In this document: in pieces, positions 9,001 through 22,615 of the stretch
Numbering within the stretch: position 1 is the first letter of the stretch
How the letters are laid out: every line of letters starts with the position of its first letter
From: Candidatus Omnitrophota bacterium
GTDB lineage: Bacteria > Omnitrophota > Gorgyraeia > Duberdicusellales > Duberdicusellaceae
Assembly: GCA_016932855.1 (NCBI GenBank)
Contig: JAFGCB010000029.1
Coordinates: forward strand, 2,547-66,546
Reading direction: 5' to 3'
DNA length: 64,000 bases
Notes under the pieces: generated by a model
Database searches by the model: none
What the model saw: only the letters and a program-made list of their open reading frames with translations
Told to the model about the DNA's origin: nothing
Position numbers and translations under genes: made by a program

Positions 9001-12000
9001 CAGGGTTATGCTGCTGGTTGCATCTAAAGAAGTAGCGCTTGAAACAGCTGCCCTGTCATCTACTCCGTCCAGTAATAAGCCTGATACATTAAATCCGGTC
9101 TCATCAAAGTCTTTGTAGAGAGTATTATCATAATTAGAGGTGTTTGAGGCGTCGCTTTTTCCGTAATAAAGGTATATTTTTTTGGTTTGTTCTTCGGGAA
9201 TTAAGGGCACTTCTACGTAAAGAGTCCCTGTTTTGGCGGCGTAGCTAAAGGCTGTTCGGGTATAATCAAGAATAGTGATATTATCCGAATCAACAAAGCG
9301 GATATCATAACCGTCGCTTCTGCACCTTTTCCAAAAGCCTTCGTGGCTGGGAGTAAGCTCTATTTTAGCCGGATAATTTGTAAGTTCTATACCGCTTGTA
9401 TTATCTATCTCGATATCCAGGTGGTATTCCCAGCCGGAAAGAGAAGGTGAAGTCGTATGTTCTTCGTAAAGGGTAAAATAGTAAGGTATGTCACTTCCGG
9501 TTCCGCCTCCTCCGGTAAAGTCATCAATAAAACCGATTGACCAGTTGTCGGTATGAGACATCTCATCCCGGTCATTATGGCTTATCCCGACTTTTAGAGG
9601 CGATTCCGAAGAATAGACTGAATTATACAATTCTATCCATTCAGTTTCACCGGAAAGCCGGTAATAATAGGTAGCCCCGGGATTTTTTAAAGTAATCTTT
9701 ATGTCATACCATTCTCCGGGAGTATAAGATCCTACGCTTCCTCTGTTGCCGCCGTCCTCGTAAACCCTAAGCTCGCCGTTATTAAAGTAGAGGCAGTAGA
9801 TTAGATCGGTGTAACTTGCTCCGCTTCCGGCGTCATGCCAGCCCACCATTACTCTTGTTCCCAAGTCAGCTTTAAACTGGGCAATAAAGGATAAGTTGTT
9901 TTCCCGGGCAAAAACTTCAGTGGTTATTAAGTAGGTATCCCAGCCATCAGCAGTATCGTTACGTAAGGATAGATATTCGTCCTGGCTTATATTTCCTCCG
10001 CCGAATTCAAACTTGTCGCTGTCAATGGTTGTGCCGGCGAAATCCGCGTATAAAGGAAAGACTTCAGCATCACTCTCGGATACTGCCGCGGCATTTCCGT
10101 ACTTAAGATAGATTGTTGTTTCTTCGCCTGCCGGCATAAAGGGGATCTTGATATATATTCGTGCGTATTGGGCTGCGTAATCAAAGGTTGCTCCCTGGTC
10201 ATGGATGTTGTAGCCTAAGCTATTCCCCTGTCCATCGGAAAATCTTACGTCGCTTCCGTCGCTTTTTACGTGCTCCCAGAAGTCTTTATTCGAAGAGTCT
10301 ATTTCAATAGTCGCCACAAAATTAGTATAGGAGTTTGCGCCGGAGGTATTATCAAATATAATCCTCTGGGTATAGTCAAAGCCCTGGTAGAGTTTCTTAA
10401 GTCTTCCTACACCGCTAGCTACTTCAATGCTTGTAGCGTAAGCATAGTCAGTATCTAAGGAAAAGTCATGGGTAAAGCCTTGGGTTCCTCCGGGTCCTAC
10501 CCATGAAGCAGAAGCAAGGCTTGCTTCATCAGCAGCTGTTCTTAGCTGGAAGCGTATATCCGAACCTCCGGGCTGGGTTTCTGACCAGGAAAGTCCTGTT
10601 ATTCGGTTAGCGGTTGTTGAGGTATCATAAGGAGATGAGATAAGGGTTTGCTTGGCCGGGTATTTGGTATAGTTTAGGTCTATATCCTGCAGTTCCGGCA
10701 AGTTATTGATGTCATCGGCAAAGAACCTAAGCTGGTACTGGATATAGGCTTGCCCGTCAACTATTGCCGGATAGGACAAGGTTAAGTCATCCCCTTTATG
10801 CCGGATTTCAATATCATCCCAGTCCTGGGCATCAGCCATTGATTCGCTGCCGGAAGTGCGGGCCCTTAGTTCAAAGGAAGAAGCAGCTACATTGGAATTC
10901 CAGTCAACAATATCAAAACCTTGGTTTCGCCCCACTTCTTTTACGGTTGAGGTAAAAGAGCCTTTTTTAAATACCAGGAATTTAGAGATATTTTCTTTAT
11001 AATCGCCGTGCAGAGCATAGAGATAGTCACCGGTTCCCGGGTAGACTATCCGGGAAAGGCCGTCAAACTGCTGGGGGCATAGTTCGTCTAAGGCTTCCCA
11101 GGTGTTCTGGGACATGGAGTATCTAAAGACAGTTCCTGTAGGGCAAGAATATTCATAGCTTGAGCCCTGGGAAAGATAGATAAAGTCGCCTGCTCCGGGA
11201 TAGACTAAAGATGAGGCCATGTAGCTGTTTCCTCCTAAAAGAGCCGGCACGCTCGCTAAGGCTTCCCACTGGCTGCTGGATAAAGAATATCTCCAGAAAG
11301 CTCCGGTGCCGTTACCTCGGGTAGCATAGATGTAATCGCCTGAACCCGGATAGCATAATGAAGCTCCCCAGTTTGTTGCTGCCGGGGTGGCAGTAGCAGT
11401 TGACCAGGAGCCGGAGACAGGGTTGTAGGACCAGAAATCAGTTGTATTCCCTCCCCTAAGAGCGTATATCCTTTGGGCTGTTGAGACAAGCTGGTGGCCG
11501 TTGCCAAAAGGCTGCGAGGGAGTATTTAAGACATCCCATTCATTAGCCGGTATGGAGTAGCGGACAAAATTACTGGTATTTCTGCCTCTGGTGGCATATA
11601 GATGACTTCCCTGTCCGGGATAGATAAGTTGTGCTCCGTAGTTATCCCAGCGCCAGTTAGGTGCTGAATTCCAGGGGCTGGTAAGAGAAGTCCAGGTCCG
11701 GTCAGTAAGGTTATATCGATAAAAAGTGTGATAAGCTCCGGAATATAGAGTATTGCCGTCTGCTCCCTCGCAGAAAGAGCTGTAATGAATAGTATGACAG
11801 TGTACATAAGGAAAGCCGACTTCCAAATCCCAGGTATCCTGGCTTATAGAATAGCGGGCAAAGAGCTGGTTGTAACCGTCAGTAAGATAGATAAAATCCC
11901 CTGTTCCCGGGTAGAACATATCCGAGTCATAAGGAGAAGTATAGTGGCCGAAAGGAGGGTTGCTTAATTCATACCAGGCATCTTCGGATATATCGTAGCG

Positions 12001-15000
12001 GTAGAATTTAAAATAGCCTGAGCCTGAAAAGTAATAAATAGAGTCGCCGTCACCAATATCGGGGTGATAATATATAGTTCCGTTTTGGCAGTAATAGGGC
12101 GAATTCGTAAGCGGCTGCCAGGTATCCAGGTCAGTGCGGTACGCGTAAAAAGAATTACTGTTTCTTCCTACTTTCCAGAAGACAGTATTTTCCGAAGAGA
12201 CATATCTTAAGCGGTTGCCCCGGGGCGATGAGGTGGTAACAGCATCCGGCAGCGCCTCTACTGAGGGCGGGTTATCTAAAGATGTTTCCCAGCTGTCAGT
12301 AGAGATAGTGTATCGCATGAATACCGAGCGGTTCCAGGAGCTTTCAGTATAATAAGGGTCATGTCCGGCAATAAGATAGATAATATCACCGCTAGAACTC
12401 ATCTGGGAGCCGTCAGTAAAGAGAACAGGTGTTGCTTCATTGGTTTCAGCATTGGATAGCTGAGTCCAGGTTCTGTTTACAATATCATAACGCCAGAGAT
12501 GATTAGTATAGCTTCCTTCAATAAGATAGATATAGTCGCCGCTTCCCGGGTAAGTTGCCCTTGTCCCGAAGCTCATGGAGAAAGGAGTATATATAGTGCC
12601 GGTAAATCTATCCTGCGATACTGAATATTTCCAGGCATGCCTTCCGAATATACCCGTAAATATATATACAGTATCACCGCCGGCATGAACCACGCTTCCG
12701 TAGCCAAATCTTGAGGAAGCATATTCTTCAAGCTTTTCTGTCCACTCATTTGTAGATATGGTATAGGTATGTAATTGATAGGAGTCTTCATTTAATAGAT
12801 AAACATTATTTCCTACCGCTTCTAAAGAAAGGCAATAGGTTGCTGCGACTAAGGGAGGTTGGGACAGCCATTCCCAGGTGCCTTCATTCGCGCCCTGGAA
12901 AGCGTAGCGCACGAAACAGCCGTTATTAGTATAGCCGTTAATAAAATATAGGTAATCCCCGCTTCCCGGGTATTTCATCTTTGCCGAATAGTAAAACGGT
13001 ACAGGCGTTTTTAAGGCAACCCCTGGACTTTCTTCGGTTATCCATTCGCCGGTTGAGATATTATATTTCCAGAAATCACTGCTGTTTCCCCGGGCGGCAT
13101 AGATGTAATCGCCAAAGCCGGGATAAGCCAGACAGCTTCCGTAATAGACAGTATCCGGAGCCATATTAAAGGCATTAAAATTCCAGCGGGTACTATTGGT
13201 GTGGCCGCTGGTAGCTCCGAAAGTAACAGTTATACCGTTATTTAAGTCCTGGGAAGCTCCGGTTATAGGGATATCCGTTGCCTGCCAGGTTGAGCCGTTA
13301 TCATCTGACCAGCGGAAGGTATCCGGTGTTCCTTCCGAGTCGATTTGAACCCGGTAGCGCATTAGATTTTCTTCACCGGTATAAGCCCCGCCGGTAGTCA
13401 TATCATCAAGGGCTGTTTGTGAAGAGAAGGTAAGCGGCCCGATAGTAGGATTAGCTACTTCTGACCAGGTATCAGTTGAAGGGTCATATTTCCAGAAGTC
13501 AGGAGATTGGTTTCCTCTAAATGCATATATATAATTTCCCACTGTAACTAAAGCTCCTCCCCAGTAGACTTCTGCCGGAGTATCTGATAAGGTTTCCCAG
13601 CTATTGGCTGAAGTATTATATCTGGCAAAATTAACGGCGGTTTCTCCTCTTGTGGCGTAGACATAGCCGTTAAGATAAGCAATATCCGCACCGTGGTAAA
13701 TACCAAATGGCGCATTTGCTAAATTTTCCCATTCGTTATTAGTAATTGAATATCTTTCAAGATAATTGTTACTTGAACCGCGCGTCCGGTATATGTAGTC
13801 TGTTCCGTCATAGGCTAAAGCTGCTCCCCGGTAATTGGTTGTCCTTTGTGGATGGGGAAGAAAGTTCCATTCTGAAGTGGAAGTATCAAAGGCTAACGAG
13901 CCTCCTGTGTAGTTACGCACAGATATGTATTTAAGCTCTGTTCCTGCTCCTCCGGGGTGGTAAAGGAATCCTCTTTGGGAATATATAGGTAATTTAGGCA
14001 GTTCTTCCCAGGTTTCACTGCTTATGGAATAACGGGAGAAGCGGCCGTATTCAGCGTATTGGATGCCGTATATATAATCTCCTGTTCCCGGGTAAAATAT
14101 ATCTGATATGCCGTGATCAGCGTTAGGCGGCTTAAAGAAATCCCAGCGCTGTTTAGTGATATGGTAAGCGCAGAAATTAGTAGAGTTATATCCCCTGTTT
14201 AAATATATGTAATTGCCTGTTCCCGGATATACTAAAGTTGACTGTCTGGTAGGAGTCCAGTTGGAGTAGATATTTTCTCTTGGGGTCCAAGTATCGGAGC
14301 CTATGTCATATTCGTAGAATAAGGCGCTGCTTCCTGCTGTGCAGAAGACTTTACTGGTAGTAGCAGTCAGGTTTCCGCCTCCTCGGACATAAGTCGGGAC
14401 ATTAGCCATTACTGTCCAGGTGTCTGCGCTTATTGAGTATCTCCAGAACCCTCTTCGGGAGCCGCCCTGAGTTACGAAAATATAGTCTTCATTCGGGCCT
14501 GCTCCCGGCCAGGCAAGGCTTGCTCCTGCGCCGGTTCCCCCCGGCATTTTAGCTAAGAATTCCCATTCCTGGGTATCCACCGAGAATCTGCCTAGAATAT
14601 CTTTATCCCAGACAGCGTATATATAGACTTTAGAGTCGGTGTGCACTACTCTTTCGTAGTCCGAATACCAGTCTAACGTGGGAACCTCATTAAGGGAAAC
14701 CCATTTTCCCAGGTTATCTACAAAAGGGTCTTCTAAGCCTCCTTGTAAGACTACCGAGGCGTCTTCTCCGGGGTTTCCTGAAATTTGGACGTTTTCAGTT
14801 GTCCCTCCCTGGTAGTCTTCATACACAGTATCTTTAATCGAGAACTGGTCAGAAGTTAGAAGAGCCTTTCCGAACTGGCCGGTTCCCGTGGCAATGACAT
14901 TATCGTCTTTAGCGGAGAACTCGTTCCAGTCGGTCTGGTCACCGGGATGGCTAGCAGTATTTGCGCTTGTTCCACCTGACCAGTCAGTCTGGACAAAGCT

Positions 15001-15102
15001 GTCAGCATAGGCCTTGCTTTCCGGTAGAAAGCCCAGGGGTCCTATTTGGCTAAAGATAAAGACCTCGATTAAAAGGATAATAAGAGTCTTTTTCCTATTC
15101 AT
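1..15102 (-). CDS. Giant secreted multidomain surface protein/adhesin, partial: the N-terminal >5,030 codons are in the window and the 3' end lies beyond position 1. Domains: signal peptide, Kelch-type beta-propeller repeats, 4x DUF2341-like modules, LamG/ConA-like domain, ~13 tandem Ig-like repeats, then a distinct C-terminal region.
   Basis: Start is ATG at 15102 (rc of cat at 15100-15102), preceded by AAGGAG (rc of 15111-15116) at 8 nt. N-terminus MNRKKTLIILLIEVFIFSQIGPLGFLPESKAYA is a signal peptide. Sampling the minus frame with codon first base congruent to 0 mod 3 at about 1020, 2040, 5040, 7020, 8400, 10020, 12000 and 14040 found no in-frame stops. Hand translations: YVYATRGETAVNFARYNTSANSWETL and YIYAFRGNQSPDFWKYDPSTDTW (Kelch-like blades, about 13.6 kb); SYRK...ADYSDLRF...IYMYYGN repeated 4x (DUF2341 signature, about 10.4-7.8 kb); YHIVATYDQEEGLVKIYSNG (LamG/Laminin_G_3 signature, about 6.0 kb); PNGGELWTVGDTENITWT... 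repeated with ~285-nt period (5.3-1.45 kb). All plus-strand ORFs listed in this span are short antisense artefacts. Confidence 0.8.
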   Translation of the reverse strand, partial: MNRKKTLIILLIEVFIFSQIGPLGFLPESKAYADSFVQTDWSGGTSANTASHPGDQTDWNEFSAKDDNVIATGTGQFGKALLTSDQFSIKDTVYEDYQGGTTENVQISGNPGEDASVVLQGGLEDPFVDNLGKWVSLNEVPTLDWYSDYERVVHTDSKVYIYAVWDKDILGRFSVDTQEWEFLAKMPGGTGAGASLAWPGAGPNEDYIFVTQGGSRRGFWRYSISADTWTVMANVPTYVRGGGNLTATTSKVFCTAGSSALFYEYDIGSDTWTPRENIYSNWTPTRQSTLVYPGTGNYIYLNRGYNSTNFCAYHITKQRWDFFKPPNADHGISDIFYPGTGDYIYGIQYAEYGRFSRYSISSETWEELPKLPIYSQRGFLYHPGGAGTELKYISVRNYTGGSLAFDTSTSEWNFLPHPQRTTNYRGAALAYDGTDYIYRTRGSSNNYLERYSITNNEWENLANAPFGIYHGADIAYLNGYVYATRGETAVNFARYNTSANSWETLSDTPAEVYWGGALVTVGNYIYAFRGNQSPDFWKYDPSTDTWSEVANPTIGPLTFSSQTALDDMTTGGAYTGEENLMRYRVQIDSEGTPDTFRWSDDNGSTWQATDIPITGASQDLNNGITVTFGATSGHTNSTRWNFNAFNMAPDTVYYGSCLAYPGFGDYIYAARGNSSDFWKYNISTGEWITEESPGVALKTPVPFYYSAKMKYPGSGDYLYFINGYTNNGCFVRYAFQGANEGTWEWLSQPPLVAATYCLSLEAVGNNVYLLNEDSYQLHTYTISTNEWTEKLEEYASSRFGYGSVVHAGGDTVYIFTGIFGRHAWKYSVSQDRFTGTIYTPFSMSFGTRATYPGSGDYIYLIEGSYTNHLWRYDIVNRTWTQLSNAETNEATPVLFTDGSQMSSSGDIIYLIAGHDPYYTESSWNRSVFMRYTISTDSWETSLDNPPSVEALPDAVTTSSPRGNRLRYVSSENTVFWKVGRNSNSFYAYRTDLDTWQPLTNSPYYCQNGTIYYHPDIGDGDSIYYFSGSGYFKFYRYDISEDAWYELSNPPFGHYTSPYDSDMFYPGTGDFIYLTDGYNQLFARYSISQDTWDLEVGFPYVHCHTIHYSSFCEGADGNTLYSGAYHTFYRYNLTDRTWTSLTSPWNSAPNWRWDNYGAQLIYPGQGSHLYATRGRNTSNFVRYSIPANEWDVLNTPSQPFGNGHQLVSTAQRIYALRGGNTTDFWSYNPVSGSWSTATATPAATNWGASLCYPGSGDYIYATRGNGTGAFWRYSLSSSQWEALASVPALLGGNSYMASSLVYPGAGDFIYLSQGSSYEYSCPTGTVFRYSMSQNTWEALDELCPQQFDGLSRIVYPGTGDYLYALHGDYKENISKFLVFKKGSFTSTVKEVGRNQGFDIVDWNSNVAASSFELRARTSGSESMADAQDWDDIEIRHKGDDLTLSYPAIVDGQAYIQYQLRFFADDINNLPELQDIDLNYTKYPAKQTLISSPYDTSTTANRITGLSWSETQPGGSDIRFQLRTAADEASLASASWVGPGGTQGFTHDFSLDTDYAYATSIEVASGVGRLKKLYQGFDYTQRIIFDNTSGANSYTNFVATIEIDSSNKDFWEHVKSDGSDVRFSDGQGNSLGYNIHDQGATFDYAAQYARIYIKIPFMPAGEETTIYLKYGNAAAVSESDAEVFPLYADFAGTTIDSDKFEFGGGNISQDEYLSLRNDTADGWDTYLITTEVFARENNLSFIAQFKADLGTRVMVGWHDAGSGASYTDLIYCLYFNNGELRVYEDGGNRGSVGSYTPGEWYDIKITLKNPGATYYYRLSGETEWIELYNSVYSSESPLKVGISHNDRDEMSHTDNWSIGFIDDFTGGGGTGSDIPYYFTLYEEHTTSPSLSGWEYHLDIEIDNTSGIELTNYPAKIELTPSHEGFWKRCRSDGYDIRFVDSDNITILDYTRTAFSYAAKTGTLYVEVPLIPEEQTKKIYLYYGKSDASNTSNYDNTLYKDFDETGFNVSGLLLDGVDDRAAVSSATSLDATSSITLEAQVKADIDYWPEGFSYRKKLTINNSAGPAYSYMTVEFTVPYQGEMNADYSDLRFWNAEHSQKLRYKINSSNPTEAEIWLVIPEIPANANKEIYMYYGNSSASSESDNTISEYEFNVDFSGTVIDSNKFLYGGGTVSQNEFISFNNDNTGWDCYLITKDTFNRAADKYFQFKFKTDSSATAMVGLHDSGTAAGYWDLVYCLYFTGNNIYIYEDGTSRGGVGSYTPGEWYDCKIVLKNQGAIYYYKLASSPTWIQAYDSSYSSETHLRGAVSHYSMNYQTHTDDWVILRTTISPSVNFGSQETETSTLKWLPGFSYRKIITLDNTGGSKYTNILGQFDVSFESGKMNADYSDLRFLDTDGTRLDHRITESSPTEATILVKIPVFPQNSTKKILMYYGNPNATFESESALSAYDGGIIQATGTNINVSLIGFTNPRVFASEQLPSDTYRSGGTATQNPFITNVSSSGFDLKLIESPSAGDDLIIPQNVAYLIFEEGIHTIGNMTVEVGTLEISGSGYQTVYTTTYFTSPPVVLAATQTDNNSLPMFTRVRNVGNNSFQVQIETTEDSNPTIANAETVAYAVISVETDTEAKIEAYRSGDEVDENFDRFNFSFTRNDVGVVAHMQSEDAGDPGYAIVRNTTSQDVEVAIEEPSPFDGTRGNETIGWVAFSPNTGVSFPTNFATEENQPAINDTIIGKSGAYELKFNEQGLSGLINGSNVISVLDAYQFGQLMHIAFTYDGANAKIFVDGLEKESVESIGTINTNSNNLIIGQGIKGFIDEARVWNMANSQALINEYKQRYLTGNESGLVCYLPFNENSGTDALDLTSNNNDAILENGAGWIDNPLSYTNGASSALYHMDEGGGFSSADSSGNNNHITLSGLNWDLEDLTGFPSGNSLEFDGVTSYAYRVDSPSLDTTKRISIEAWIKPSDNVSTQTLVVKGNDAAPRYNYRLLQDGNNISFIFYNGEEYNFTPSSGFISAGNTYHIVATYDQEEGLVKIYSNGQLRYSSECTVNMLPNDDNLQIGKEISGAFAYYGLIDDVRIYRRALSPEEILHHYQHRSHYVNAPLELNIYEVEGTQDIAAYAVNNPVIQPVFGVFYENSRIADFQEIANIPHNTGIKYQISADGYRWYWWDGDSWEEVELGYDNANLAATVNSNISSFQDLYPSGDFYYRVYLHTEPGTFMTPSLDNIMVTLLTGETFYIDPSGSISINSLHSDASSDRWVQYKAILYSDGEETPLLDDITIEYIEARIDITYPNGGEDLNVGQDVEVTWTSQGIDGATGLVKIEYSADGGSIYQTVEENVDDDGSYTWEIPDDPAQNALIKISSEDFPTVSDTSNDTFRILSLEVTSPNGGEIWEEGKTHNILWSAPGSIPGNVVKIDFSTDGGGNWTSIVNPTPNDSEHPWGIPSDTESETVLVQISNSNNPEITDTSDAVFHIVPTPEITITSPQGGEEWTLGTEHAISWEANQLQFSDEVILEYSKDNFASDVHTIAQVSIGTPQGANPNDDIVGSHPWNLPDDPSATVRVRIREVDIPVGRDTQFTVSKISEEFSIMEPSIAITSPVSSTETIWVVGDTNDITWETEGNVSDNLYIEYSTDDGQNWNEIATGEDNDATYSWNIPAQASENNVLVKISDLDRPSVSDTKTVKILSEPEITVTYPNGGETFTIGTFETITWISYGNILESGGADYNKINIYYSDDNGQNWVLAAYNIANSKSHSWEVADAETTQALIKVEDENNTSYSDTSDAIFSISIPTITIEFPNGGEAFYATGSYDITWSTVGAVSDNLTLQYSTNGGGSWTDIDAGVDDTGSYTWLSVTDSITSNALIRMIDADRPSVIDVSDAPFSIIEPTITVTTPNGGEEWAEGTVHEVSWTSMGYDFGAIRDNLTLQYSSNGGSNWTDISTGEANDGYYTWTIPGAISTDCYVQIFDATRQATQDETDEAFSITLPFVEVLKPNGGESWIIGTTHQIEWRTVGAVSDDLQIEYSKDNFSTSDIIFDGVIAQPNYEWTIPDDFSATVKVRITDNTESLITDDSDAVFSIVNPVLTVTAPNGGELWTVGDTENITWTNTGSVGDDLLIEYSKDNFASNIITIAANLTPNNGNHPWQLPIDPTATARVRITDNTRPAVWDKSNAGFTILPIPQLQILTPNGSEVWRVGSEEDITWSDNGGLVSNNLTLEYSTNAGSDWTEIATGVSNGGLYAWGIPDQVSASCLVRITDASRPSNTDESDDIFQIADPLITITSPDSSTVWAVDDRASIIWTTEGTVSDNLVLQYSPDGGANYYTAISADTGLEAIGVPNSGSFNWLVADYITSNAKFKIIDGNRPATVGLSSGVFKIIAIPRFVITSPAGGESYVLENTLNITWTCEGLDISDNLLIESSNNNFVSSQVIISGEANDGNYSWSIPQNSLTGSTMKVRITDGSRTEVTGASPGYFTIKGGFELITPNGAEIWVAKSAHTVTWQTRGNIDSAKLEYTLDDGLNWNLISASVDANLNSYTWTLPDIVSDTVKLRISNAVDFNASIPDTSENDFRIVYVPVHFKVLDFDTMSHLDDLEVTEPATSWHDTGLISPDNLIREIPGYAYATYTTFFSKTNYIDNSVTWSPPKEYVGIITPYVITCYLENTASAQVSWEAILTYSFAPATDTLAAVGSLQRKGKLVGTRPEERESMGAATLTIYEPDGETVRNTLTAFQPNDSGFYTFTLANTTFAAGYVYPATLSIFYRDQSYTSSANIDVGSEILQYEFFTQTATKLASSVEQIKDAVAIGLGQTKQDIENDIASSAASIKSHTSSILSTVEESLTQTVEEAKDVAETAMKSEILNRENTVKSGEELVIRYRTYSGLVPSIDLYDAENAQQIVKGTMAEIGTTGIYEYLVKFDTKWGRGDFTIVCSEAIKGTLDALIMTVISSDIDSIAGQVASIMGTTSSLDDFKGVAETMTAQFAVVESALASISRDIVNQVTSAVESTTNLDSVYSQLVNMSKDIRSIGATQDINLEKLYEVN
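1450..5300 (-). repeat. Coding tandem array of ~13 Ig-like/Kre9-KNH-like domains (~95 aa, ~285 nt each) inside the giant gene.
   Basis: Repeated translations such as ITYPNGGEDLNVGQDVEVTWT, VTAPNGGELWTVGDTENITWT and ELITPNGAEIWVAKSAHTVTWQT. Antisense plus-strand ORFs occur with 285-288-nt spacing (2414, 2702, 2987). Confidence 0.7.
7780..10480 (-). repeat. Four diverged tandem DUF2341-like modules (internal duplication of a ~450-900-nt coding unit) inside the giant gene.
   Basis: Nucleotide-level similarity between 8290-8460 and 9650-9850 (gtcataccattc(a/t)ccgggagtataa...). YYGN-type motifs (rc atgtattacgg / atgtactacgg) sit at about 7821, 8718, 9165 and 10097, each preceded by ADYSDLRF(L/W). 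Confidence 0.65.
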
Positions 15103-15107
15103 CTTGA

Positions 15108-15146
15108 CCGCTCCTTTTTATTTACCGCTGCTGTTACCGGCAGCGG
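15108..15146 (-). promoter_or_regulatory. 5' leader of the giant gene: a 7-bp stem hairpin (ccgctgc-tgttaccg-gcagcgg) 20 nt upstream of the AAGGAG RBS.
   Basis: Perfect inverted repeat at 15125-15131 / 15140-15146. RBS is the rc of 15111-15116. Confidence 0.4.
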
Positions 15147-15234
15147 CAAGAATATAAATCCTTTATTACTTAAAAGATATACCTTAATAAGTTCCCAAAG
15201 TCTCTCGTTCTGTAATAAAACGTTAATAATTTTT

Positions 15235-15267
15235 GCGTACTGCTTACCGCGTACTGCGTACTGAGAG
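15235..15267. repeat. Three direct GCGTACTG repeats immediately 3' of the HUH-domain gene.
   Basis: gcgtactgcttaccgcgtactgcgtactg lies 5-37 nt after the stop at 15272-15274. Confidence 0.5.
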
Positions 15268-15271
15268 TATT

Positions 15272-16252
15272 TCATTTGCCTAATTTGCCCTCCAGTTCCT
15301 TTACTTTCTGTTTTTCCGCTTCCAGCCTTTTGGACATAGCCTCATATGAGACCATATTAGCCCGGTATAATTCGTCCAAGCCCCGCTTTATTCTTTCTTT
15401 TTCGGTTGTTAATTTTTTACTGTATTCTTTTTCCTGTTTTTGAGAAAGGTCGGTAAACTCGCCTTTTAAGTGGCGGTTTGTCCCCATAAGGGCTATATTT
15501 ACCAGGCCCAGTATTGCAATAGCCAGAGTCCCGGCCAGCACGAACTTTTTATTTACTTCCGGAGAAAGTAACTGGGGCTTTTGTTTAGACTCGGCTATTT
15601 TTCTTTTTATCTTGTCTTTAAAAGCATCGCTTCCCAGCAGCCTGGCGCTCTTTATTTTCTTGACCAGATTATCGAACTCTTTCTGAGGAGGGTTTTCAAA
15701 GAATTGCTTGTAGTCTTGAGCCGGTGAAATTTCGCTAAGAGCAATTTCTACTTCCTTAATTTCCTCGTTTATGTCAGGTTCATTAAAGCCTTCGTTTTCA
15801 AGGCTTTCATCCTTTAAGTATAGGGGAAGGCTTGTGTATTTGTAGTCTTTCGCCTCAGAGCTTAAGCCCAGGTGATAGGGGTTGCGGTGAATATAGGCAG
15901 TCATATAGGCCAAGTAAGATTTCTTCTCTACCAGAACCATCCGGAAGCGTTCCTGCAGGAGGTGGCCGCCTCTGTTATAGCGGCTGTTAAAGTATTTGAT
16001 GTAGGTGTTGTTTATATCGTGCATAATATCGGATATAGTTACCCCGCTGGTTAGCTCGATTAAAAGGTGAAGGTGGTTGCAGAGAAGGCTAAAGGAAAAC
16101 AATTTAAACCCGTATTGCTCCTTATATTTTTTCAAGAGCCCGATATAGGTTTTAAAGTCTTCTTTGTCCTTAAAGATAGTCTGGTTATTGTCTCCCCGGG
16201 TTGTTATGTAATAGAGTTCTTCTTCAACATGAATACGCGGCAGTCTAGGCAT
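15272..16252 (-). CDS. IS200/IS605-TnpA- or RAYT-like HUH-Y1 domain protein (N-terminal ~165 aa) fused to a linker, a TM helix and a C-terminal coiled coil.
   Basis: RIHVEEELYYITTRG...LLCNHLHLLIE (HxH motif)...AYIHRNPYH (catalytic Tyr motif) matches the Y1 transposase / COG1943 fold. TM helix is FVLAGTLAIAILGLVNIALMG. The tail KERIKRGLDELYRANMVSYEAMSKRLEAEKQKVKELE is paralogous to the tail of the 16745..17137 product. Start revised to ATG 16252 with GGAGGA just upstream. The ORF-track TTG start at 16312 overlaps an intrinsic terminator. Confidence 0.7.
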   Translation of the reverse strand: MPRLPRIHVEEELYYITTRGDNNQTIFKDKEDFKTYIGLLKKYKEQYGFKLFSFSLLCNHLHLLIELTSGVTISDIMHDINNTYIKYFNSRYNRGGHLLQERFRMVLVEKKSYLAYMTAYIHRNPYHLGLSSEAKDYKYTSLPLYLKDESLENEGFNEPDINEEIKEVEIALSEISPAQDYKQFFENPPQKEFDNLVKKIKSARLLGSDAFKDKIKRKIAESKQKPQLLSPEVNKKFVLAGTLAIAILGLVNIALMGTNRHLKGEFTDLSQKQEKEYSKKLTTEKERIKRGLDELYRANMVSYEAMSKRLEAEKQKVKELEGKLGK

Positions 16253-16310
16253 ACTTCCTCCTTGGCTTGGCCTCGCAGCAGGAGCGTGCGTGGCACTTTT
16301 TGGAATTTTC

Positions 16311-16341
16311 AAAAAAAAATCCCAGGATGCTGTTTCCTGGG
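16311..16341 (-). terminator. Rho-independent terminator on the minus strand (7-bp stem CCCAGGA/TCCTGGG followed by T9).
   Basis: Minus-strand reading is tttatttCCCAGGAaacagcaTCCTGGGattttttttt. It lies between the 16745..17137 gene and the HUH gene start. Confidence 0.6.
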
Positions 16342-16657
16342 AAATAAATACATTTTAGAATTTTCGGTAGCTTGACCATCCTTATCCTTTCAAGGACTCA
16401 CAGCTTTGCGCCCCCCGGTTACCCGGGGTTTGCCCTTTCGAATCCTACCTTTTTGTCACAATTAAAGTCTACACTTATTACTTTTATATTTCAAGGGTGC
16501 GTGGCACTTTCTATCAAATCAACCTATTTAAAAAGTATTATAAATAAAGAACTTTTGGGTGGGTCTAAAAAAAAAGGCGAAAAAAGCGGCAAAAAAACAA
16601 AAAATATTCTCAAAACCGGCTTTTTGTAGATTCCAAGGTAAATGCTTTAAACAAACC

Positions 16658-16727
16658 TACGAATTTACTAATCTTTACGAATATACGAATGGGCTATTCG
16701 TAAAAAATTCGTAATGCAGATTCGTAA
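16658..16727. promoter_or_regulatory. Nested inverted-repeat array: TACGAAT x3 followed by ATTCGTAA x3.
   Basis: cctacgaatttactaatctttacgaatatacgaatgggctattcgtaaaaaattcgtaatgcagattcgtaatg, with core TACGAATgggctATTCGTA. Lies 18-87 nt 3' of the 16745..17137 stop and ~400 nt 5' of the HUH gene start. Confidence 0.55.
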
Positions 16728-16744
16728 TGATTAGTAGCTGGGGT

Positions 16745-17137
16745 CTAGGATCCGTTATTCAGTTCTTCCTGGAGTTCTTGTTTTCTCTTCTTTTCCTGCT
16801 CAAGCCGGTCAGCCATGCTTTCATAGGAGCGCATGCTTTCGTTGTACACGGCTTCGAGCCCTTCTTTTATTATTTCTTTTTCCCGGTAAAGTCTTTTATT
16901 GAATGCCTCTTTTTTAATTTCCGAGAGGCTGTTAATGGATTTTTTTAAGGAGAGGTTGCTTAAGATAAGATATACGGTAAGTGCGGCAAGCAAAACAACC
17001 CCTATTAATAAGCCGATGATTTTTGACAAGATTTTTTTAGTTTTATTTTCCAGCCGTTGATAGAAGCGGCTAGAATTTATCAATTGGTTTATAGCTGTAG
17101 TAGAGAAGCTCTGAGTCGTCTTTTGTTTCAAAGACAT
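16745..17137 (-). CDS. Small bitopic membrane protein with a C-terminal coiled coil, paralogous to the tail of the HUH fusion protein.
   Basis: TM helix IIGLLIGVVLLAALTVYLIL. KEIIKEGLEAVYNESMRSYESMADRLEQEKKRKQELQEEL aligns with the HUH protein's C-terminus. Confidence 0.6.
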   Translation of the reverse strand: MSLKQKTTQSFSTTAINQLINSSRFYQRLENKTKKILSKIIGLLIGVVLLAALTVYLILSNLSLKKSINSLSEIKKEAFNKRLYREKEIIKEGLEAVYNESMRSYESMADRLEQEKKRKQELQEELNNGS

Positions 17138-17250: not shown

Positions 17251-17964
17251 CTAGTAAGTTAGTTCTTTTATTAAGGCTTTAACTTCGTTACTGTCTTCGG
17301 CCTGAGGCTTAAGCTCAAGGTACTTTTCGTAATGAAGCGCGGCTTTTTCAGAATTTTCCTCGTAGTCTTGATATAAAAGGCCTAAATTATAATGAGCTTC
17401 GGGATTATCAGGGTTAGCCTCAAGCGACTTTTCGTAAGCTTCAATGGCCTGGGCGTAGAATTCAGCTTCTGTATAGGCTACGCCTAGGTTGTATTGATAA
17501 AGGGCTCTTTCCTGGAGAATTTTCTGTTTTAAGTTCTTAATTTCATTTTCCAGGGATTCTTTTTCTTTTAATGCATTACCCTTTTGAACGGGGCCGGTCA
17601 GGCCAAGGCGCTCTTTGGTTTCGTATTGTCTTAACTTATCGTTTAAGGCTTTTATTTCACTGTTTTTTTTCCTAATAAGAGCTTCTTTTTCAGTAAGCTT
17701 GCTTTGAAGATTTTCTTGAGTGGTTTGAAGCTTGGTAGTAAGCCCGAGGTATGATGTTGAGTCCGCTTCAAGGCGTTCTTTTTCTTTTACCGCTTTTCCT
17801 TTTTCAAGACTAAGAAGCTCTATCTGTTGCTTGAGATTTTCGACTAAATCATTGTTTTGTGCAAGTCTTTTTTGGGAATTGGCGGCTTTTGAGGAGATAA
17901 AAATTACTATAATAAGAAGGGTAAAGGCAATGGCAGACGGGATAATAACTTTTAGCTCTTTCAT
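17251..17964 (-). CDS. Membrane-anchored coiled-coil protein with C-terminal TPR repeats (MshN/PilF-like secretin-associated TPR protein?).
   Basis: N-terminal TM helix, long heptad-rich region, then TPR-like [37 protein letters not shown]. Confidence 0.55.
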
Positions 17965-17980
17965 TTTAAAACTTAGGGAT

Positions 17981-19276
17981 TTAATGGGAGAGCATATCTA
18001 TCAGATATTCTATTTCTTGTTTATCCTTTACGCTGTCGGTAAGCTTAAGGGATTTACGGAAATGTTTAAGAGCTTCTTTGTTGTTGTTTTGAGAATGTTG
18101 GTATAAAAGGCCGAGATTATAATGTATCTTGGAATTTTCCGGATCGGTCTCCAGGGATTTATTAAACGATTCTATTGCCAGGCCAAAGAGTTTTGCCTGG
18201 GTATAAATTGTACCCAGTTCTTCATAGAGGCGGGAGCGTTCCTTTTTAAAAGTATTCTCAAGCGCGGCGACTTTTCTTTTAAGATGTTCATTTTCTTTGA
18301 TAAGTTTTTGGCTTTCTCTCGCCAGCTTAAAAGCCTCCTTCTGTAGTTTGTTTATTTGTTTTTGTTCCTGCCCGGAAGAGGCTGGCTTGCTATCGGTTTT
18401 CCGGTTTTCTTTAATTTGCTTGTTTTTTTCTGCAAGAACTGCTTTATCCCGGGTTAAATTATCGATTTTTTCTTCGAGGATCTTTACTTGTTCCTTGTAT
18501 TGTTCAGATTCTTTAAGTTTACTTTCAAGGGCTCTTTCCCGGTCTTCAAGAGCTTTTAATTCGCCCGAAAAATCACCTTCTTGAAGGGCGCTTATAAGAG
18601 TCAGGTTTTGTTCTTCCAGGGTTTGAATTTTTTCTTTAAGGCTTGTATTTTCAGCGCCAAGGTTTTCTTTTAATCTTTTTACCGTTTCTTCATATTCTTT
18701 AAGCTTTTCTAACTGAGCCTTTGAAGATTCACCTTTATCTTCCAGCCGGGCTTTAACATTTAAGGCCTGCTTCAGCTCTTCTTTTAACTCCAGGTTTTTT
18801 TGGCTTAAGGTTTCTATGCGCTGCTGGTAAGACAGCTCTTTCTTGCTGTCCTGAGCATTTTTTTCTTTGAGGGTCTTTTCAAAAAGGCCGACCTCTTTTT
18901 TTAAGAGTTGGTTTTCTTTAGAGAACCGGGCGTGCTCTTCAATGATATTTTCCAGCTTTTTCTCTAAGGCGGCTGCCTTTTCTTCCCGGGCTTCCACCAC
19001 GGCTAATCTAGTTTCAAGAAGGCCTTGCTTTTCTTTGATAGCCTCTAATTTTTTTTCCGATTCAGCTTTGAGCAATTGAACGCTTTGCAGCTGCTGTTTT
19101 AATTCAGCGCTTTGCTGTTTTAATTTATTAATGTCGATTTCACCCAGTATTTTATCTATGGTGTCGGATAATTCTTTTGCTTCGGTTTCGGCATTTTCAG
19201 CCCAAGCTTTAGACCCCGGGTCTATAGACAAGCAAGCAGCGAATATAAATACAAAAATTAAAATTTTGTTTTTCAT
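17981..19276 (-). CDS. Secreted coiled-coil + TPR protein, paralog of 17251..17964.
   Basis: Signal peptide [26 protein letters not shown], ~330 aa of coiled coil, then C-terminal [42 protein letters not shown]. Confidence 0.55.
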
Positions 19277-19278
19277 GT

Positions 19279-21171
19279 TTAGTATTCCTTTATTCCCTTC
19301 ATTTTATCGGATATACTTGCCGGTTTTTTAGAGCTTTTAGGTTCATTTTTGTTCTCGTCGCAAGTTCCTAAGGGTGACAGATTTTTCGGGGTTACTCTAA
19401 TTTGTTCTATCTTTTTAGATATTATCGATTCTTGCAGGTCATCAGGCATGATATCCGCGGGTATGTGATCCTGGATTTCGGCATGCTTGACCGGAACATC
19501 GCCCTTTATAATGTGGGGTTTAAGAAATATCACTATTTCGGTTTGATTGTTTTTTTTAGCCTGGGAGCCGAAAACCGCTCCTAAAATCGGTATACGCCTT
19601 AAGAAAGGTATGCCTTTTTCGTCATCTTCACGGGAGTCCTTTATGAGTCCGGCAATCATTATCATTGTATTATCTTTTACTTTTACGACAGTTTCTGCTT
19701 CGGAAGTCTCGATGATAGGTATGCGGCTTCCCAGGGAGGTTTCTAATTCATCTATAACCGAGCTTACCTCAGGTTTTATCTTCATAGTAACAAAGCCGTC
19801 TTTGCCTATGGTGGGCACAACATTTAATTTTACTCCTACGTCCACGAATTCAATCGATTCCGAAGTAACCGTGGTAGTTTCGGCCTGGCTTAAGCTTTGG
19901 GTTACATAAGCGTCGCGTATGCCTACCAGTATTTTAGCCTCTTCATTATTTACTACGGCGATGCGGGGACGCGAGAGAATCTTTGTATTGCCGTAGCTTT
20001 CAAGCATGTCTAGAGTAGCGTCAAAATCATCAGCATCAAGCGTACCTACAGTCATTGCGAAATTCTCCGTGGTATAATTAGGCGGTGCGTCTATGGGGCT
20101 AAAAGCTGAGGTTAAATCTAGGCCGTGCATGTATGCGTTTTGGAATACCCGTTCCCAGTCTATGCCTTGATGATATTCGTCTTTAAGGCTTATCTGGATA
20201 ATCTCAGCTTCAATAAAGACCTGGCGGTTCTCCTCGTCTAAGGCTTCGACAATCTTTTTTATCTTCTTCATTTTCTTGGGTAAATCAGAAACCAATACCT
20301 TACCTGAACGCTCGTCGATAAGAAGTTCGCCTGGCCCTGTGGTTATAGCTTCGGAAAGATGGGTTTTTAGGTCTTCTGTTTTAGCATAATTGATATCAAA
20401 TACTTCGGTTTGTAAGGGCTTATCTAAATCGTTAGTTACCTTTTCCATGAGCTCGATTTTGTCCGGTATATCAATGAGAATGATAGTCCCTGAGGCTTCA
20501 TCGACAATAATTTTTCCTATACTTGATTTAAGCTCTGATAAGGCTTTAAACACCGAAGCAGGTTCTGCGTATGACAGGTTAATGCTTTTGATTTCTCTTT
20601 TTTCATTATATTTTTTCCCGTAAAGAGTTTCGTATTCCGCGGCGGTCATTACGCTTATAATCTCGTTTTTCTTTTCGCAAGCCAGCTGCTGGCTTACCAG
20701 GATGACGTCAAGGGCGTCTTCAAAGGTTATGTTGTTTAAGAATATATTTACTCTTCCGGTGATCTTTCTTGAGGGTACAATAGTCAGGTTCATCTTCAAG
20801 GAGAGAATTCTGAAGAGTTCGATAATATCAACCCCTTTTAAATCTAAAGAAATTCTTTCTTCAGCTATTTTTACGCCCTGGTTTACTTCTTCTTCTGACA
20901 GGGGGTGTGTTGCCCCTATATCGGATATTTCTTCGTCTTGGTAGAGGTCTTCCAAGGGTGGCTCTGGTATGGGCATATCGCCTTCAGCAGCATCGATTCC
21001 CTGCAAGATTGCCTGCTCTTCAGGCGGGATAGTCTGTATAGGTTCGGGGGGATTTTCGTCTTGAGAAAAAACACATAGGGTGGTTGTTCCGAAGACCAGA
21101 GCTATTCCGCAGACCATAATCAATGTTTTAATAAACACAAGGACATTCTGGCGGTTCATTCTATGGTCCAT
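19279..21171 (-). CDS. Secretin (PilQ/GspD/MshL family outer-membrane channel).
   Basis: C-terminal secretin signature ...KGIPFLRRIPILGAVFGSQAKKNNQTEIVIFLKPHII, N-terminal N0/N1-like domains, N-terminal signal/TM. Overlaps the upstream gene by 16 nt. Confidence 0.85.
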   Translation of the reverse strand: MDHRMNRQNVLVFIKTLIMVCGIALVFGTTTLCVFSQDENPPEPIQTIPPEEQAILQGIDAAEGDMPIPEPPLEDLYQDEEISDIGATHPLSEEEVNQGVKIAEERISLDLKGVDIIELFRILSLKMNLTIVPSRKITGRVNIFLNNITFEDALDVILVSQQLACEKKNEIISVMTAAEYETLYGKKYNEKREIKSINLSYAEPASVFKALSELKSSIGKIIVDEASGTIILIDIPDKIELMEKVTNDLDKPLQTEVFDINYAKTEDLKTHLSEAITTGPGELLIDERSGKVLVSDLPKKMKKIKKIVEALDEENRQVFIEAEIIQISLKDEYHQGIDWERVFQNAYMHGLDLTSAFSPIDAPPNYTTENFAMTVGTLDADDFDATLDMLESYGNTKILSRPRIAVVNNEEAKILVGIRDAYVTQSLSQAETTTVTSESIEFVDVGVKLNVVPTIGKDGFVTMKIKPEVSSVIDELETSLGSRIPIIETSEAETVVKVKDNTMIMIAGLIKDSREDDEKGIPFLRRIPILGAVFGSQAKKNNQTEIVIFLKPHIIKGDVPVKHAEIQDHIPADIMPDDLQESIISKKIEQIRVTPKNLSPLGTCDENKNEPKSSKKPASISDKMKGIKEY

Positions 21172-21770
21172 TCCATCCCTTCTCTTTCAATAAGGACCTG
21201 GTTTCTTAAGACTTTTTTTACCTTAAAGCCTTCGATTGTCTCGCCTGCGCCTAAAAGATGAGTTTTGCCGCTTTTGGTGTATTCAATCATTGCCTGAGGG
21301 TTATCCGACCAGATTACGCCCACAAGCTTTAAGCTTTTAATCGTTTCCGAGGTATCAAGGCTTATCTTTTTCTCCGGGGCCGCAGGGATAAAGGTAAATA
21401 TATTTCTTTTTCTGGCTTGAGCTTGAATTTCGTTTATATTAGTTTCCAGAGATATTTTTTTTGTTTGATCTACTGCCGCAATAGCGGAGTTTTCCTGGAT
21501 TTGGGCGAAGCGGTCTTCGAGATCAGAGCTTATCTTCATAAAATCGAAAACAGCCAAGATTGTAAAAGCTACGCATAAGCCGAGAAGTATTCTATTTACC
21601 GTCTCCAGTTTAAGGGATTTAAAAGCATTTTTAAGACCTTCTAATGAGCCGCTAAGTCCTGCAAACAAAGATACCTTTCCTTTAGTTACCGCAGAGGGGC
21701 TTCGTTTGGCAACCGTAGGGTCTTCCAGGATTTTTAGTAATTTTTCTTCAGGGGTGCTTTTATCTTTCAT
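21156..21770 (-). CDS. Bitopic inner-membrane protein, GspB/ExeB- or PilP/GspC-like secretin-assembly partner (tentative).
   Basis: Cytoplasmic N-terminus, single TM (ILLGLCVAFTILAVFDF), periplasmic beta-rich C-terminus. Sits between the ExeA-like ATPase and the secretin. Confidence 0.4.
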   Translation of the reverse strand: MKDKSTPEEKLLKILEDPTVAKRSPSAVTKGKVSLFAGLSGSLEGLKNAFKSLKLETVNRILLGLCVAFTILAVFDFMKISSDLEDRFAQIQENSAIAAVDQTKKISLETNINEIQAQARKRNIFTFIPAAPEKKISLDTSETIKSLKLVGVIWSDNPQAMIEYTKSGKTHLLGAGETIEGFKVKKVLRNQVLIEREGMEWTIE

Positions 21771-21772
21771 GT

Positions 21773-22615
21773 CTAAATAATTTGCGACTGGGAAATCTTT
21801 ACTTCCTGGGAAATTAACTCCCGGATTATATCCACGGTAACTGCGGGCTTATTGTGCATAATAAGTTCTTTTAATCCGCTGTGGCAAATCATGGCTATTC
21901 TTCGGGGATAGCCTTGGGTATAGTGATAAATCTCTCTAATCGCATCATCGGTAAAAAGGCCGGGCCCGGAAAGGTAACCCGCGGTTTTTAGCCTGAATTC
22001 TATCATCGCTCTTGTTCCCTGCAGGTCAAGAGGGTTTATCACGTACTTTAAGCTTAGACGGTCCATAAGGTTTTTAATTTCCCGTATTCTGGGAAGAAGC
22101 TCCATTTGGGAAAGAAGCACAAGTTGCAGCAGTTTGTATTCATTGGTTTCGTAATTTAAGAGGACCCGCAGGATTTCTAAAGAAAGAGAGTTTAGTTTTT
22201 GGGCTTCGTCGATTAATAATACTATTGTCTTTTTTTCTTCGACGCCGGTTCTGAAAAGGTAGTCTTTTATCGCTTCTTTAAAGTCCAGTATGTTAGGATT
22301 GGGTTTTTGAAGCGTTATCTTAAAGGTCCTGATTAGAGAATCTAAAAACAGCTCTTCCGTTTCAAAGGTAGGGTCGAGAATCATGTGAAAGATAATATCA
22401 TCCCTTTCTTTAAGCATACGGAAAAGCTTCCGGGAAAGCGTGGTCTTTCCGGTTCCCACATCTCCCAGTATAAGACTTAATCCTCTTTTAAGGCGGATTT
22501 CTATCATGAGCCTCATCAAGGCCGCGTGGTGTTCCTTGGAGTCGTAGAAAAATTCCGGGTCAGGACTTGTTGAAAAGGGCTCTTTGTCCAGGCCCAAGAG
22601 TTTATAGTAGCTCAT
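21773..22615 (-). CDS. ExeA/GspA/MshM-family AAA+ ATPase (AAA_22).
   Basis: LLGLDKEPFSTSPDPEFFYDSKEHHAALMRLMIEI...LILGDVGTGKTTLSRKL matches the GspA/ExeA N-terminal region and Walker A. Walker B is LLIDEAQ. Confidence 0.8.
   Translation of the reverse strand: MSYYKLLGLDKEPFSTSPDPEFFYDSKEHHAALMRLMIEIRLKRGLSLILGDVGTGKTTLSRKLFRMLKERDDIIFHMILDPTFETEELFLDSLIRTFKITLQKPNPNILDFKEAIKDYLFRTGVEEKKTIVLLIDEAQKLNSLSLEILRVLLNYETNEYKLLQLVLLSQMELLPRIREIKNLMDRLSLKYVINPLDLQGTRAMIEFRLKTAGYLSGPGLFTDDAIREIYHYTQGYPRRIAMICHSGLKELIMHNKPAVTVDIIRELISQEVKISQSQII

Follow-up and report, generated by a model that had tools for sequence, protein, structure and literature searches.

We analysed a 64-kb stretch of Candidatus Omnitrophota DNA (the window, in which all coordinates are given; Table 1) carrying a gene for an HUH-Y1 domain fused to a transmembrane (TM) helix and a long tail. 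This gene, referred to here as HUH-TM, is the first gene of an operon that is conserved in the Omnitrophota genomes sampled and comprises a sigma-70 promoter, a cyclic di-GMP (c-di-GMP)-I riboswitch, a terminator, one or more copies of a conserved box, HUH-TM and a gene for a giant secreted surface protein. The operon adjoins a secretin cluster ending in a free-standing paralog of the TM helix and tail. HUH-TM itself is a domesticated, non-mobile descendant of HUH-Y1 proteins of the RAYT/TnpA_REP type. The HUH-TM, giant and secretin-cluster genes are all on the minus strand. An earlier reading of the window (the original prediction) had placed the gene inside the secretin cluster; the same cluster does adjoin it in relatives, but the invariant partners, which that reading did not mention, are the c-di-GMP riboswitch upstream and the giant gene downstream.

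The longest open reading frame (ORF) of the fusion (15272-16312, minus strand) starts with TTG and encodes 346 amino acids (aa). The true start is almost certainly the ATG at 16252, because the TTG start would overlap the riboswitch terminator and box 2, and because GGAGG precedes the ATG. The resulting 326-aa product is identical to a deposited Candidatus Omnitrophota protein (P0001) annotated as 'transposase'. The 346-aa ORF gives a match to Pfam Y1_Tnp at residues 40-144 (E=9.4e-13). An AlphaFold2 model of the protein (mean pLDDT 89.4; 38 homologues in the alignment) has its best PDB match in 4ER8, E. coli TnpA_REP with a REP (repetitive extragenic palindrome) hairpin (Foldseek E=8.7e-8, TM-score 0.73, target). 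Both results bear out the predicted Y1-HUH fold, and the beta-alpha-beta-beta-alpha-beta-alpha core is found in the window protein. In profile searches, H60-L-H62 was aligned with the HUH motif of TnpA_REP and Y120-I-H-R-N124-P with its Y115-I-Y-I-N119-P, where Y115 is presumably the catalytic Tyr; H60, H62, Y120 and N124 are all present in the window protein. The role of N119 in TnpA_REP has been described (PMC6006769).

The HUH core is followed by a conserved, folded helical module (residues ~142-224 according to the alignment and the model) in common with soluble relatives, and by a TM helix at residues 236-257 (nucleotides (nt) 15482-15547; Kyte-Doolittle 2.42). Residues 235-325 form a single continuous helix in the model. 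The TM helix and the model support membrane tethering of the protein, in line with the original prediction; from its description of a ~60-aa linker, a TM helix and a coiled coil, the TM helix and long tail are retained, and the linker is replaced by the folded module.

A word-indexed search returned 180 homologues of the HUH-TM protein. The top ~60 span 95-100% of its length at 40-55% identity, and nearly all of them have a TM helix at residues ~225-270; a search of relatives for the same fusion, which had been recommended, was therefore positive. An exhaustive search yielded 189 cluster representatives at E<=1e-30. Gene neighbourhoods were surveyed in 58 Omnitrophota loci (species-level genomes) and 23 loci from other phyla, 1.36 Mb in total. 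Downstream sequence of 5 kb or more was available for 42 species-level Omnitrophota loci, and every one of these contains, past HUH-TM, an ORF of at least 1000 aa, which is on the same strand, starts within 3 kb and usually runs off the locus. The giant protein of the window has a signal peptide, Kelch beta-propellers, four DUF2341 domains, Laminin_G_3 and Ig-like repeats, and its ORF begins 170 nt beyond HUH-TM. In close relatives the two genes overlap by 4 nt at one extreme and lie 50 nt apart at the other. Because of these small gaps the HUH-TM and giant genes are considered to form an operon, and the giant gene is probably co-transcribed with HUH-TM. Gene order (secretin, coiled-coil and tetratricopeptide repeat (TPR) proteins, small paralog, gap, HUH-TM, giant gene) is kept at 41-55% protein identity, and synteny across the relatives at 37-55%. 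Two further sequence features were observed around the HUH-TM/giant-gene junction: direct GCGTACTGC repeats just past the HUH-TM stop codon (15235-15261, minus strand), and a GC hairpin, CCGCTGC...GCAGCGG, that has no T-run and lies just before the ribosome-binding site of the giant gene (15110-15150).

A sister subfamily of ~400 aa was identified in loci L007, L009 and L024-L058. The HUH core, helical module and TM helix are common to both subfamilies; in the sister proteins they are followed by a long helix and a ~100-aa domain, a periplasmic eight-stranded avidin/calycin-like beta-barrel that replaces the coiled-coil tail. In the one locus looked at (L009), the next gene (11417-11953 in L009) encodes a free-standing barrel paralog with a signal peptide, so that the theme of a fusion and a stand-alone periplasmic paralog is repeated. 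The signal peptide supports an N-in, C-out topology for the whole family. No secretin cluster adjoins this subfamily in L007 and L009, where glycosyltransferase genes are found instead. The operon of the sister subfamily has a conserved ~130-aa secreted protein between HUH-TM and the giant genes, and its giant proteins have a common N-terminal 'A-VQIKRV' motif past the signal peptide.

HUH-TM is present in one or two copies per genome; two metagenome-assembled genomes hold two paralogous copies, each in its own locus. There is no further copy in the 64-kb window, each HUH-TM protein cluster occurs on few contigs, and no insertion sequence (IS) ends, tnpB or flanking subterminal hairpins were found in the window or among the relatives' neighbours. 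Low copy number, fixed synteny, the lack of IS ends and the single window copy are the grounds for regarding the gene as domesticated, as had been predicted, and the copy numbers speak against a recently pseudogenised, multi-copy IS. The same prediction stated that hairpins are lacking; this is correct for IS200-type ends, but the leader does contain a conserved box that is palindromic or hairpin-capable (see below). A mobile IS200/IS605 element, a REP-mobilising RAYT or a recent pseudogene copy is almost certainly the wrong explanation, in spite of the Pfam Y1_Tnp match and of public annotations such as 'transposase' or 'RayT'. Synteny is fixed across deep divergence, and conservation is full-length, TM helix and tail included. 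NCBIfam transpos_IS200 scored 18 bits against a cut-off of 55, and the nearest NCBIfam model, REP_Tyr_transpos (REP-associated tyrosine transposase), scored 67 bits, below its equivalog cut-off of 80 bits. The hairpin ends, multiple copies and tnpB partner of IS200/IS605 elements are absent, and YIHRNP is a class-2 'Y---NP' motif, not the class 1 'Y---Q' context of IS200/IS605 TnpA (PMC6006769). No REP/REPIN repeat family of the RAYT kind was detected either: the box occurs only twice in 64 kb, which is not a REP-like high-copy repeat, and it is leader-associated across the 1.36 Mb of loci.

Residue conservation was assessed in 42 complete modules, those in which aptamer, full-length HUH-TM protein and giant ORF are all present. 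The triad of H60, H62 and Y120 is intact in 26 of these and wholly or partly lost in 16 (38%), with substitutions such as QN., SS., ST. or RE., or a change of Tyr to His, Phe or Cys. G96-H97, R102 and H122 are nearly invariant in the same set, and the boxes are kept in loci with a dead triad. Column counts over the family were 88/120 for H60, 100/120 for H62 and 85/120 for Y120. Since the triad is lost in 16/42 modules while other residues are invariant, catalysis is not, as judged from these residues, the conserved function of the HUH-TM family. An 'endonuclease or ligase' had been proposed; as a conserved activity it is not supported.

The proposal had gone further, to a membrane-tethered single-stranded DNA (ssDNA) endonuclease or ligase acting on DNA that passes the secretin during uptake, export, conjugation or a phage-like process. 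The HUH-Y1 fold, the intact site of the window protein and a nearby secretin with weak similarity to the DNA-uptake porin HofQ are compatible with such a role, which we nevertheless disfavour as very improbable. The triad is lost in 38% of the orthologous modules, and neither competence nor conjugation genes (ComEA/ComEC, relaxase, coupling protein, pilin, PilB/GspE) were detected in Pfam/NCBIfam scans of the secretin cluster. The enzyme domain is predicted to be cytoplasmic, as against an outer-membrane secretin; it is a giant-protein gene that is conserved as the partner, and the beta-barrel subfamily has no adjacent secretin in L007 and L009. Affiliation with a defence system or phage was rejected: no match was found with PADLOC, and only a marginal match with PHROGs.

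In the leader of HUH-TM, both boxes of the window have the sequence AAAGTGCCACGCAC, and the promoter, riboswitch and terminator lie between them. Where the promoter hexamers align, the sequences of relatives are TTGA(A/C)A and TATACT. The aptamer belongs to the c-di-GMP-I riboswitch family (Rfam clan CL00126): the window sequence scored 60.2 bits with RF03167, above the gathering score of 59, and the relatives' aptamers at the same place scored 53-66 bits with the canonical c-di-GMP-I model RF01051 (threshold 35). With our own covariance model, built from five aptamers, an aptamer was found in 55/58 Omnitrophota loci, every one on the gene strand, and in 0/23 loci from other phyla. It is upstream of the HUH gene, usually by ~100-250 nt, in all loci except L021, in which riboswitch and boxes directly precede the downstream large ORF. 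The aptamer structure is supported by covariation in the alignment: 95.5% of cells are paired, 17/22 pairs are compensatory, and 0/500 shuffles reached the observed score. In 50/54 loci the aptamer is followed by an equivalent terminator whose stem is conserved. In folding predictions aptamer and terminator are able to form together, and the 3' arm of the terminator is complementary to the 3' strand of aptamer P3, which suggests an OFF switch; the ligand would probably favour termination.

Several variations on this leader were observed. In L021, the boxes and riboswitch (4524-4884) come after three inserted genes, one DsbD-like and one for a radical-SAM protein, and a second, soluble RAYT-like gene is present on the opposite strand (42-731, minus strand); the same three inserted genes are found in L013-L015, yet there the riboswitch stays upstream of the HUH gene. 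The closest relative, L001 (55% identity), has a degenerate aptamer (23 bits, 9749-9848) with an altered P2 region; it keeps the terminator and both boxes, and its switch may be decayed or re-purposed. In the alignment of aptamers from 54 loci, orthologous leaders alternate between the canonical GACGCAAAG (A) in 19 aptamers and GGCGCAAAG (G) in 27, the window included. We take this position to be the one that separates the Rfam c-di-GMP-I and c-di-GMP-I-GGC families. The presence of both types in the same gene context argues for the same or a closely related ligand.

The box has the consensus AAAGTGCC[A/T/C][G/C]GCAC (in short, AAAGTGCC-N-GGCAC) and is palindromic or hairpin-capable. Exactly two copies are present in the 64-kb window, both in the HUH-TM leader; because of its position, box 2 would be included in the mRNA solely after read-through of the terminator. 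Across the surveyed loci, 79 same-strand instances were found in 52/58 Omnitrophota loci (1-3 per locus), all of them no more than 450 nt upstream of the HUH gene, against ~10 matches scattered elsewhere in the 1.36 Mb, and none was found near the HUH genes of other phyla. Arrangement and sequence both follow the subfamily. Coiled-coil loci have two direct-repeat boxes bracketing promoter, riboswitch and terminator; beta-barrel loci have one or two boxes after the terminator, in tandem and 30-60 nt apart when there are two. Single-box loci often have the extended palindrome AAAGTGCC-N-GGCACTTT. The box centre is CAC in 24/28 coiled-coil-type boxes and CAG or CTG in 51/52 barrel-type boxes, and it tracks the subfamily even in two genomes carrying both systems, as would be expected of boxes that are each read by the product of the neighbouring gene. 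Variants compatible with G.U pairing (19) outnumber those of the A.C type (7), a weak hint of a hairpin in the top strand.

The bracketing by two boxes recalls an IS200/IS605 element with its left and right ends. An active Y1 enzyme might cut and rejoin ssDNA at the two boxes and thereby excise or rearrange the promoter-riboswitch segment, giving a heritable on/off state of the giant gene. The hairpin-capable direct repeats of the coiled-coil subfamily fit this idea, as do the intact HUH, Tyr and Asn residues of the window protein and the intact triad in 26/42 modules. We consider it improbable, as the 16 modules with dead sites keep boxes and full architecture, excision between the tandem barrel-type boxes past the terminator would remove nothing functional, and no assembly without the inter-box segment was noticed among the 58 loci.

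Other readings of the box were tried and rejected. As a sigma-54 promoter, it has TGGCAC on the opposite strand only, and a -12 TTGC at the right spacing is absent. As a CsrA site, it lacks the GGA core, and CAC-type boxes have no GG. Sequestration of the Shine-Dalgarno sequence by box 2 is possible in the window (CUCCU...AGGAG pairing) but is not conserved in relatives. DNA looping between boxes 1 and 2 would call for helical phasing, and the spacings (186, 206, 211, 215 and 216 nt) are out of phase.

The reading we prefer, to which we give an even chance, is that the cytoplasmic HUH domain binds the leader boxes without cutting them and so regulates or tethers the giant-gene operon. The domain would face the cytoplasm as a non-catalytic, sequence-specific nucleic-acid-binding module for the boxes of its own leader, bound as a double-stranded DNA (dsDNA) palindrome, a hairpin in the non-template strand or an RNA hairpin in the 5' untranslated region. 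Binding would result in autoregulation of the giant-gene transcription unit, in its tethering at the inner membrane, or in both. The periplasmic helix would pair with the 130-aa paralog and report on, or anchor to, the envelope machinery on the secretin side, and c-di-GMP would act first, at the riboswitch. A more specific form of this proposal, tentative and rather doubtful, is that a transposase-type HUH fold has become the part that reads nucleic acid in single-pass transmembrane regulators of a new class. It would recognise the small hairpin or palindrome AAAGTGCC-N-GGCAC and physically link both transcription and translation of a gene of more than 15 kb to the membrane site of its dedicated secretin. 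As with ops and RfaH, the non-template strand, or else the nascent RNA, would possibly be where the box is read; envelope signals would enter via periplasmic modules that can be exchanged (coiled coil or avidin-like barrel), and c-di-GMP inside the cell would act via the riboswitch.

A number of points weigh against binding without cutting. The window protein has an intact HUH/Tyr/Asn site, and there may be residual catalysis in its lineage. HUH domains bind ssDNA; to our knowledge, binding of one to dsDNA or RNA would be unprecedented, and box 1 of the coiled-coil subfamily is upstream of the -35 hexamer, where ssDNA is not expected. The co-variation of box type and subfamily could reflect shared ancestry instead of recognition, and the boxes are candidate sites of the HUH-TM protein that another factor could bind. 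The predicted OFF logic of the switch was derived from thermodynamic folds and complementarity. With 3 Lys/Arg residues on either side of the TM helix the positive-inside rule is uninformative, and the heptad signal of the tail, for which a coiled coil had been predicted, is modest (a/d positions 42% hydrophobic versus 24% elsewhere).

The 130-aa protein next to HUH-TM begins with a short cytoplasmic stretch, which is followed by a TM helix at residues ~40-62; its tail is characterised by the motif EKE.IK.GLE..Y...M.SYE.MA.RLE.EK. It had been described as a paralog of the TM helix and tail without the enzyme domain, and this was confirmed by BLASTP (34% identity over 88 aa, E=9e-15) and by an equivalent at the same position in four relatives (L001, L003, L005 and L008). 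Its family matches are exclusively small proteins (76-213 aa), and no other fusion partners of the tail module were found among them. The gene is the last of the secretin cluster, the order of which is the same in L001, L005 and L008, and is separated from HUH-TM by an intergenic region of 430 nt. Directly after it lies an TTACGAAT-rich region whose 17-nt inverted repeat is 94% complementary (fold z-score -3.5) and which is not repeated elsewhere in the 64-kb window; it is possibly the 3' end or a stabiliser of the secretin operon, or an operator.

GspL/GspM of the type II secretion system (T2SS) and PilN/PilO of type IV pili are paired bitopic inner-membrane proteins with homologous periplasmic helical parts and one large cytoplasmic domain, encoded beside a secretin. 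HUH-TM and the 130-aa protein resemble them as paired bitopic proteins with homologous periplasmic helices beside a secretin, and might thus be a structural adaptor pair of a secretin machine that exports the giant protein, with the HUH domain as a docking or chaperone module and the boxes bound by another factor. We consider such an adaptor unlikely. In its favour, the large and small paralogs with a common periplasmic part are as in GspL/GspM, a T2SSC-like protein, a secretin and an ExeA-like ATPase adjoin, the secretin operon ends with the paralog, and the catalytic residues are dispensable. Against it, neither protein has sequence, Pfam or NCBIfam similarity to GspL/M or PilN/O or a ferredoxin-like periplasmic domain, and HUH-TM is under the riboswitch with the giant gene, in a transcription unit separate from the secretin genes. 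The beta-barrel subfamily in L007 and L009 manages without an adjacent secretin cluster, the co-variation of box motif and subfamily is left unexplained, and soluble relatives bearing a helix-turn-helix (HTH) point to a nucleic-acid-binding ancestry.

These relatives place the HUH-TM protein as a descendant of TnpA_REP class 2 ('Y---NP'), subclass 2.1. The closest ones outside Omnitrophota are from Elusimicrobia, Nitrospirota and Clostridia, with alignments extending to residue ~220. According to Quentin et al. 2018 (PMC6006769), subclass 2.1 lacks associated REPs as well as a known function, and its C-terminal extension ends in a Bac_DnaA_C/HTH_23/HTH_28-like domain. The window protein has the C-terminal extension with the Ser-rich motif, and its Y.YSSY and helical module align with L063-L076 to ~220. 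The terminal Bac_DnaA_C/HTH_23/HTH_28-like domain is absent from it: the soluble relatives L063, L065, L066 and L070 end in a Bac_DnaA_C-like HTH where the window protein has a TM helix and long helix. The middle module was also considered as a degenerate DnaA_C HTH. This was rejected, since the HTH of the relatives lies past it (residues ~225-292) and the module is therefore a shared linker domain.

In Elusimicrobia L066 and L074, a soluble HUH gene with a DnaA_C-type HTH is located between two giant ORFs (767-9823 and 10968-end in L066; 678-7670 and 12470-end in L074) of 2330 to >3200 aa; riboswitch and box are both absent. The arrangement is a hint that very long genes were linked to the HUH gene before the membrane anchor arose. 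Large ORFs (1600-2150 aa) also adjoin the relatives in L072, L078 and L082. A different fixed partnership was observed in Clostridia/Tissierellia (L075, L079, L085-L087 and L089), where soluble relatives of ~194 aa are each directly followed by a conserved ORF of ~513 aa.

Compared with RAYT/TnpA_REP proteins such as E. coli YafM (PDB 4ER8), the HUH-TM protein is twice the size, adding a helical module, TM helix and periplasmic tail; it has no REP/REPIN repeats and is below the equivalog cut-off, its catalytic residues are lost in many orthologues, and it is in a fixed operon with a riboswitch and a giant gene. The members of subclass 2.1 are nearer, with the Ser-rich motif and helical module in common and two Elusimicrobia members flanked by giant ORFs, but they are soluble, HTH-ended and without riboswitch or box, whereas HUH-TM has a TM helix and periplasmic module. 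ToxR/ToxS, TcpP/TcpH and CadC are bitopic transmembrane regulators of surface and virulence-type genes. HUH-TM resembles them in its predicted N-in binding domain, single TM helix, periplasmic module and small partner next door. It differs in having an HUH fold and no OmpR-type winged HTH, and hence may work alike without being a member; its small partner is a true paralog of the periplasmic part, and binding and signalling are putative.

Surface-protein genes under c-di-GMP riboswitches include V. cholerae gbpA (class I) and C. difficile CD2831 (class II). The HUH-TM operon is alike in having the aptamer and terminator in the leader of a large surface-protein operon, but a membrane-anchored HUH protein and boxes stand between switch and surface-protein gene, and canonical and 'GGC' aptamers alternate. 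The ops element read by RfaH is a small hairpin in the non-template strand, and its recognition leads to processive antitermination of long operons. By analogy, the box would be a specific 5'-leader element of a very long transcription unit, and a hairpin is the type of substrate that HUH domains bind; this is pure analogy, as HUH-TM has no NusG/RfaH homology and is membrane-anchored.

We found no description of the HUH-TM/riboswitch/giant-gene module in the literature searched, in line with the original prediction, which knew of no described system of such an architecture. Papers on Omnitrophota giant genes report T2SS-like loci upstream and PilZ genes downstream and mention neither the HUH-TM gene nor a riboswitch, and TM-anchored forms are not mentioned in the HUH phylogenomics literature (PMC6006769). 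RAYT-like 'domesticated transposases' are found in about a quarter of bacterial species, and a host function beyond presumed REP movement is lacking (PMC5581495). The fixed context, the candidate cognate site and the natural catalytic-dead variants make a non-transposase function of a RAYT-like protein directly testable. In Omnitrophota, as in other bacteria that are ultra-small or predatory, the expression and export of proteins of 5,000-40,000 aa still await explanation (PMC10066038; bioRxiv 10.1101/2023.11.21.568195), and the c-di-GMP riboswitch, box and HUH-TM directly upstream of giant genes would represent an undescribed control layer. The occurrence of canonical and 'GGC'-variant aptamers in the same orthologous leader is a natural experiment on the ligand of the variant. 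If real, an HUH binder that is compact and specific for a defined sequence of ~14 nt could serve as a tool.

Table 1. Features of the HUH-TM locus in the 64-kb window.
Feature	Position	Strand	Basis or remarks
Giant surface-protein gene, >5034 codons, runs off window	1..15102	-	ORF and domain profiles
HUH-TM gene, 326 aa	15272..16252	-	Pfam, AlphaFold2 model, TM prediction, homologue alignment
HUH-TM protein layout	residues 1-~140, RAYT-like HUH-Y1 core (H60, H62, Y120, N124); ~142-224, helical module; 236-257, TM helix; 258-325, tail		
Box 2, AAAGTGCCACGCAC	16283..16299	-	between terminator and ribosome-binding site
Intrinsic terminator (riboswitch expression platform)	16310..16342	-	stem TCCCAGGA...TCCTGGGA, then T9
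c-di-GMP-I class riboswitch aptamer	16362..16443	-	Rfam RF03167, GGC-variant model scores best
Sigma-70-like promoter (-35 TTGAAA, 17-nt spacer, -10 TAGACT)	16466..16494	-	sequence and relatives
Box 1, AAAGTGCCACGCAC	16494..16510	-	immediately upstream of -35 hexamer
TTACGAAT-rich hairpin-forming region	16640..16744	-	17-nt inverted repeat 16666-16682 / 16720-16736, directly after 130-aa gene
130-aa free-standing paralog of TM helix and tail	16745..17137	-	BLASTP; conserved position
Secretin cluster, upstream	17251..22615	-	Pfam/NCBIfam profiles
Coiled-coil and TPR proteins (two)	17981-19276 and 17251-17964	-	secretin cluster
Secretin, PilQ/GspD-type	19279-21171	-	secretin cluster
T2SSC-like protein	21156-21770	-	secretin cluster
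AAA_22 ExeA-like ATPase	21773-22615	-	secretin cluster

Three further features were observed beyond the secretin cluster. A MORN-repeat protein is encoded at 23049-23630. A 963-aa autotransporter (23926-26817, minus strand) has a calcineurin-like metallophosphoesterase domain as its passenger, an unusual one. A tRNA gene of 92 nt with a long variable arm was detected at 26995-27086 on the minus strand (Rfam tRNA, 53.6 bits).

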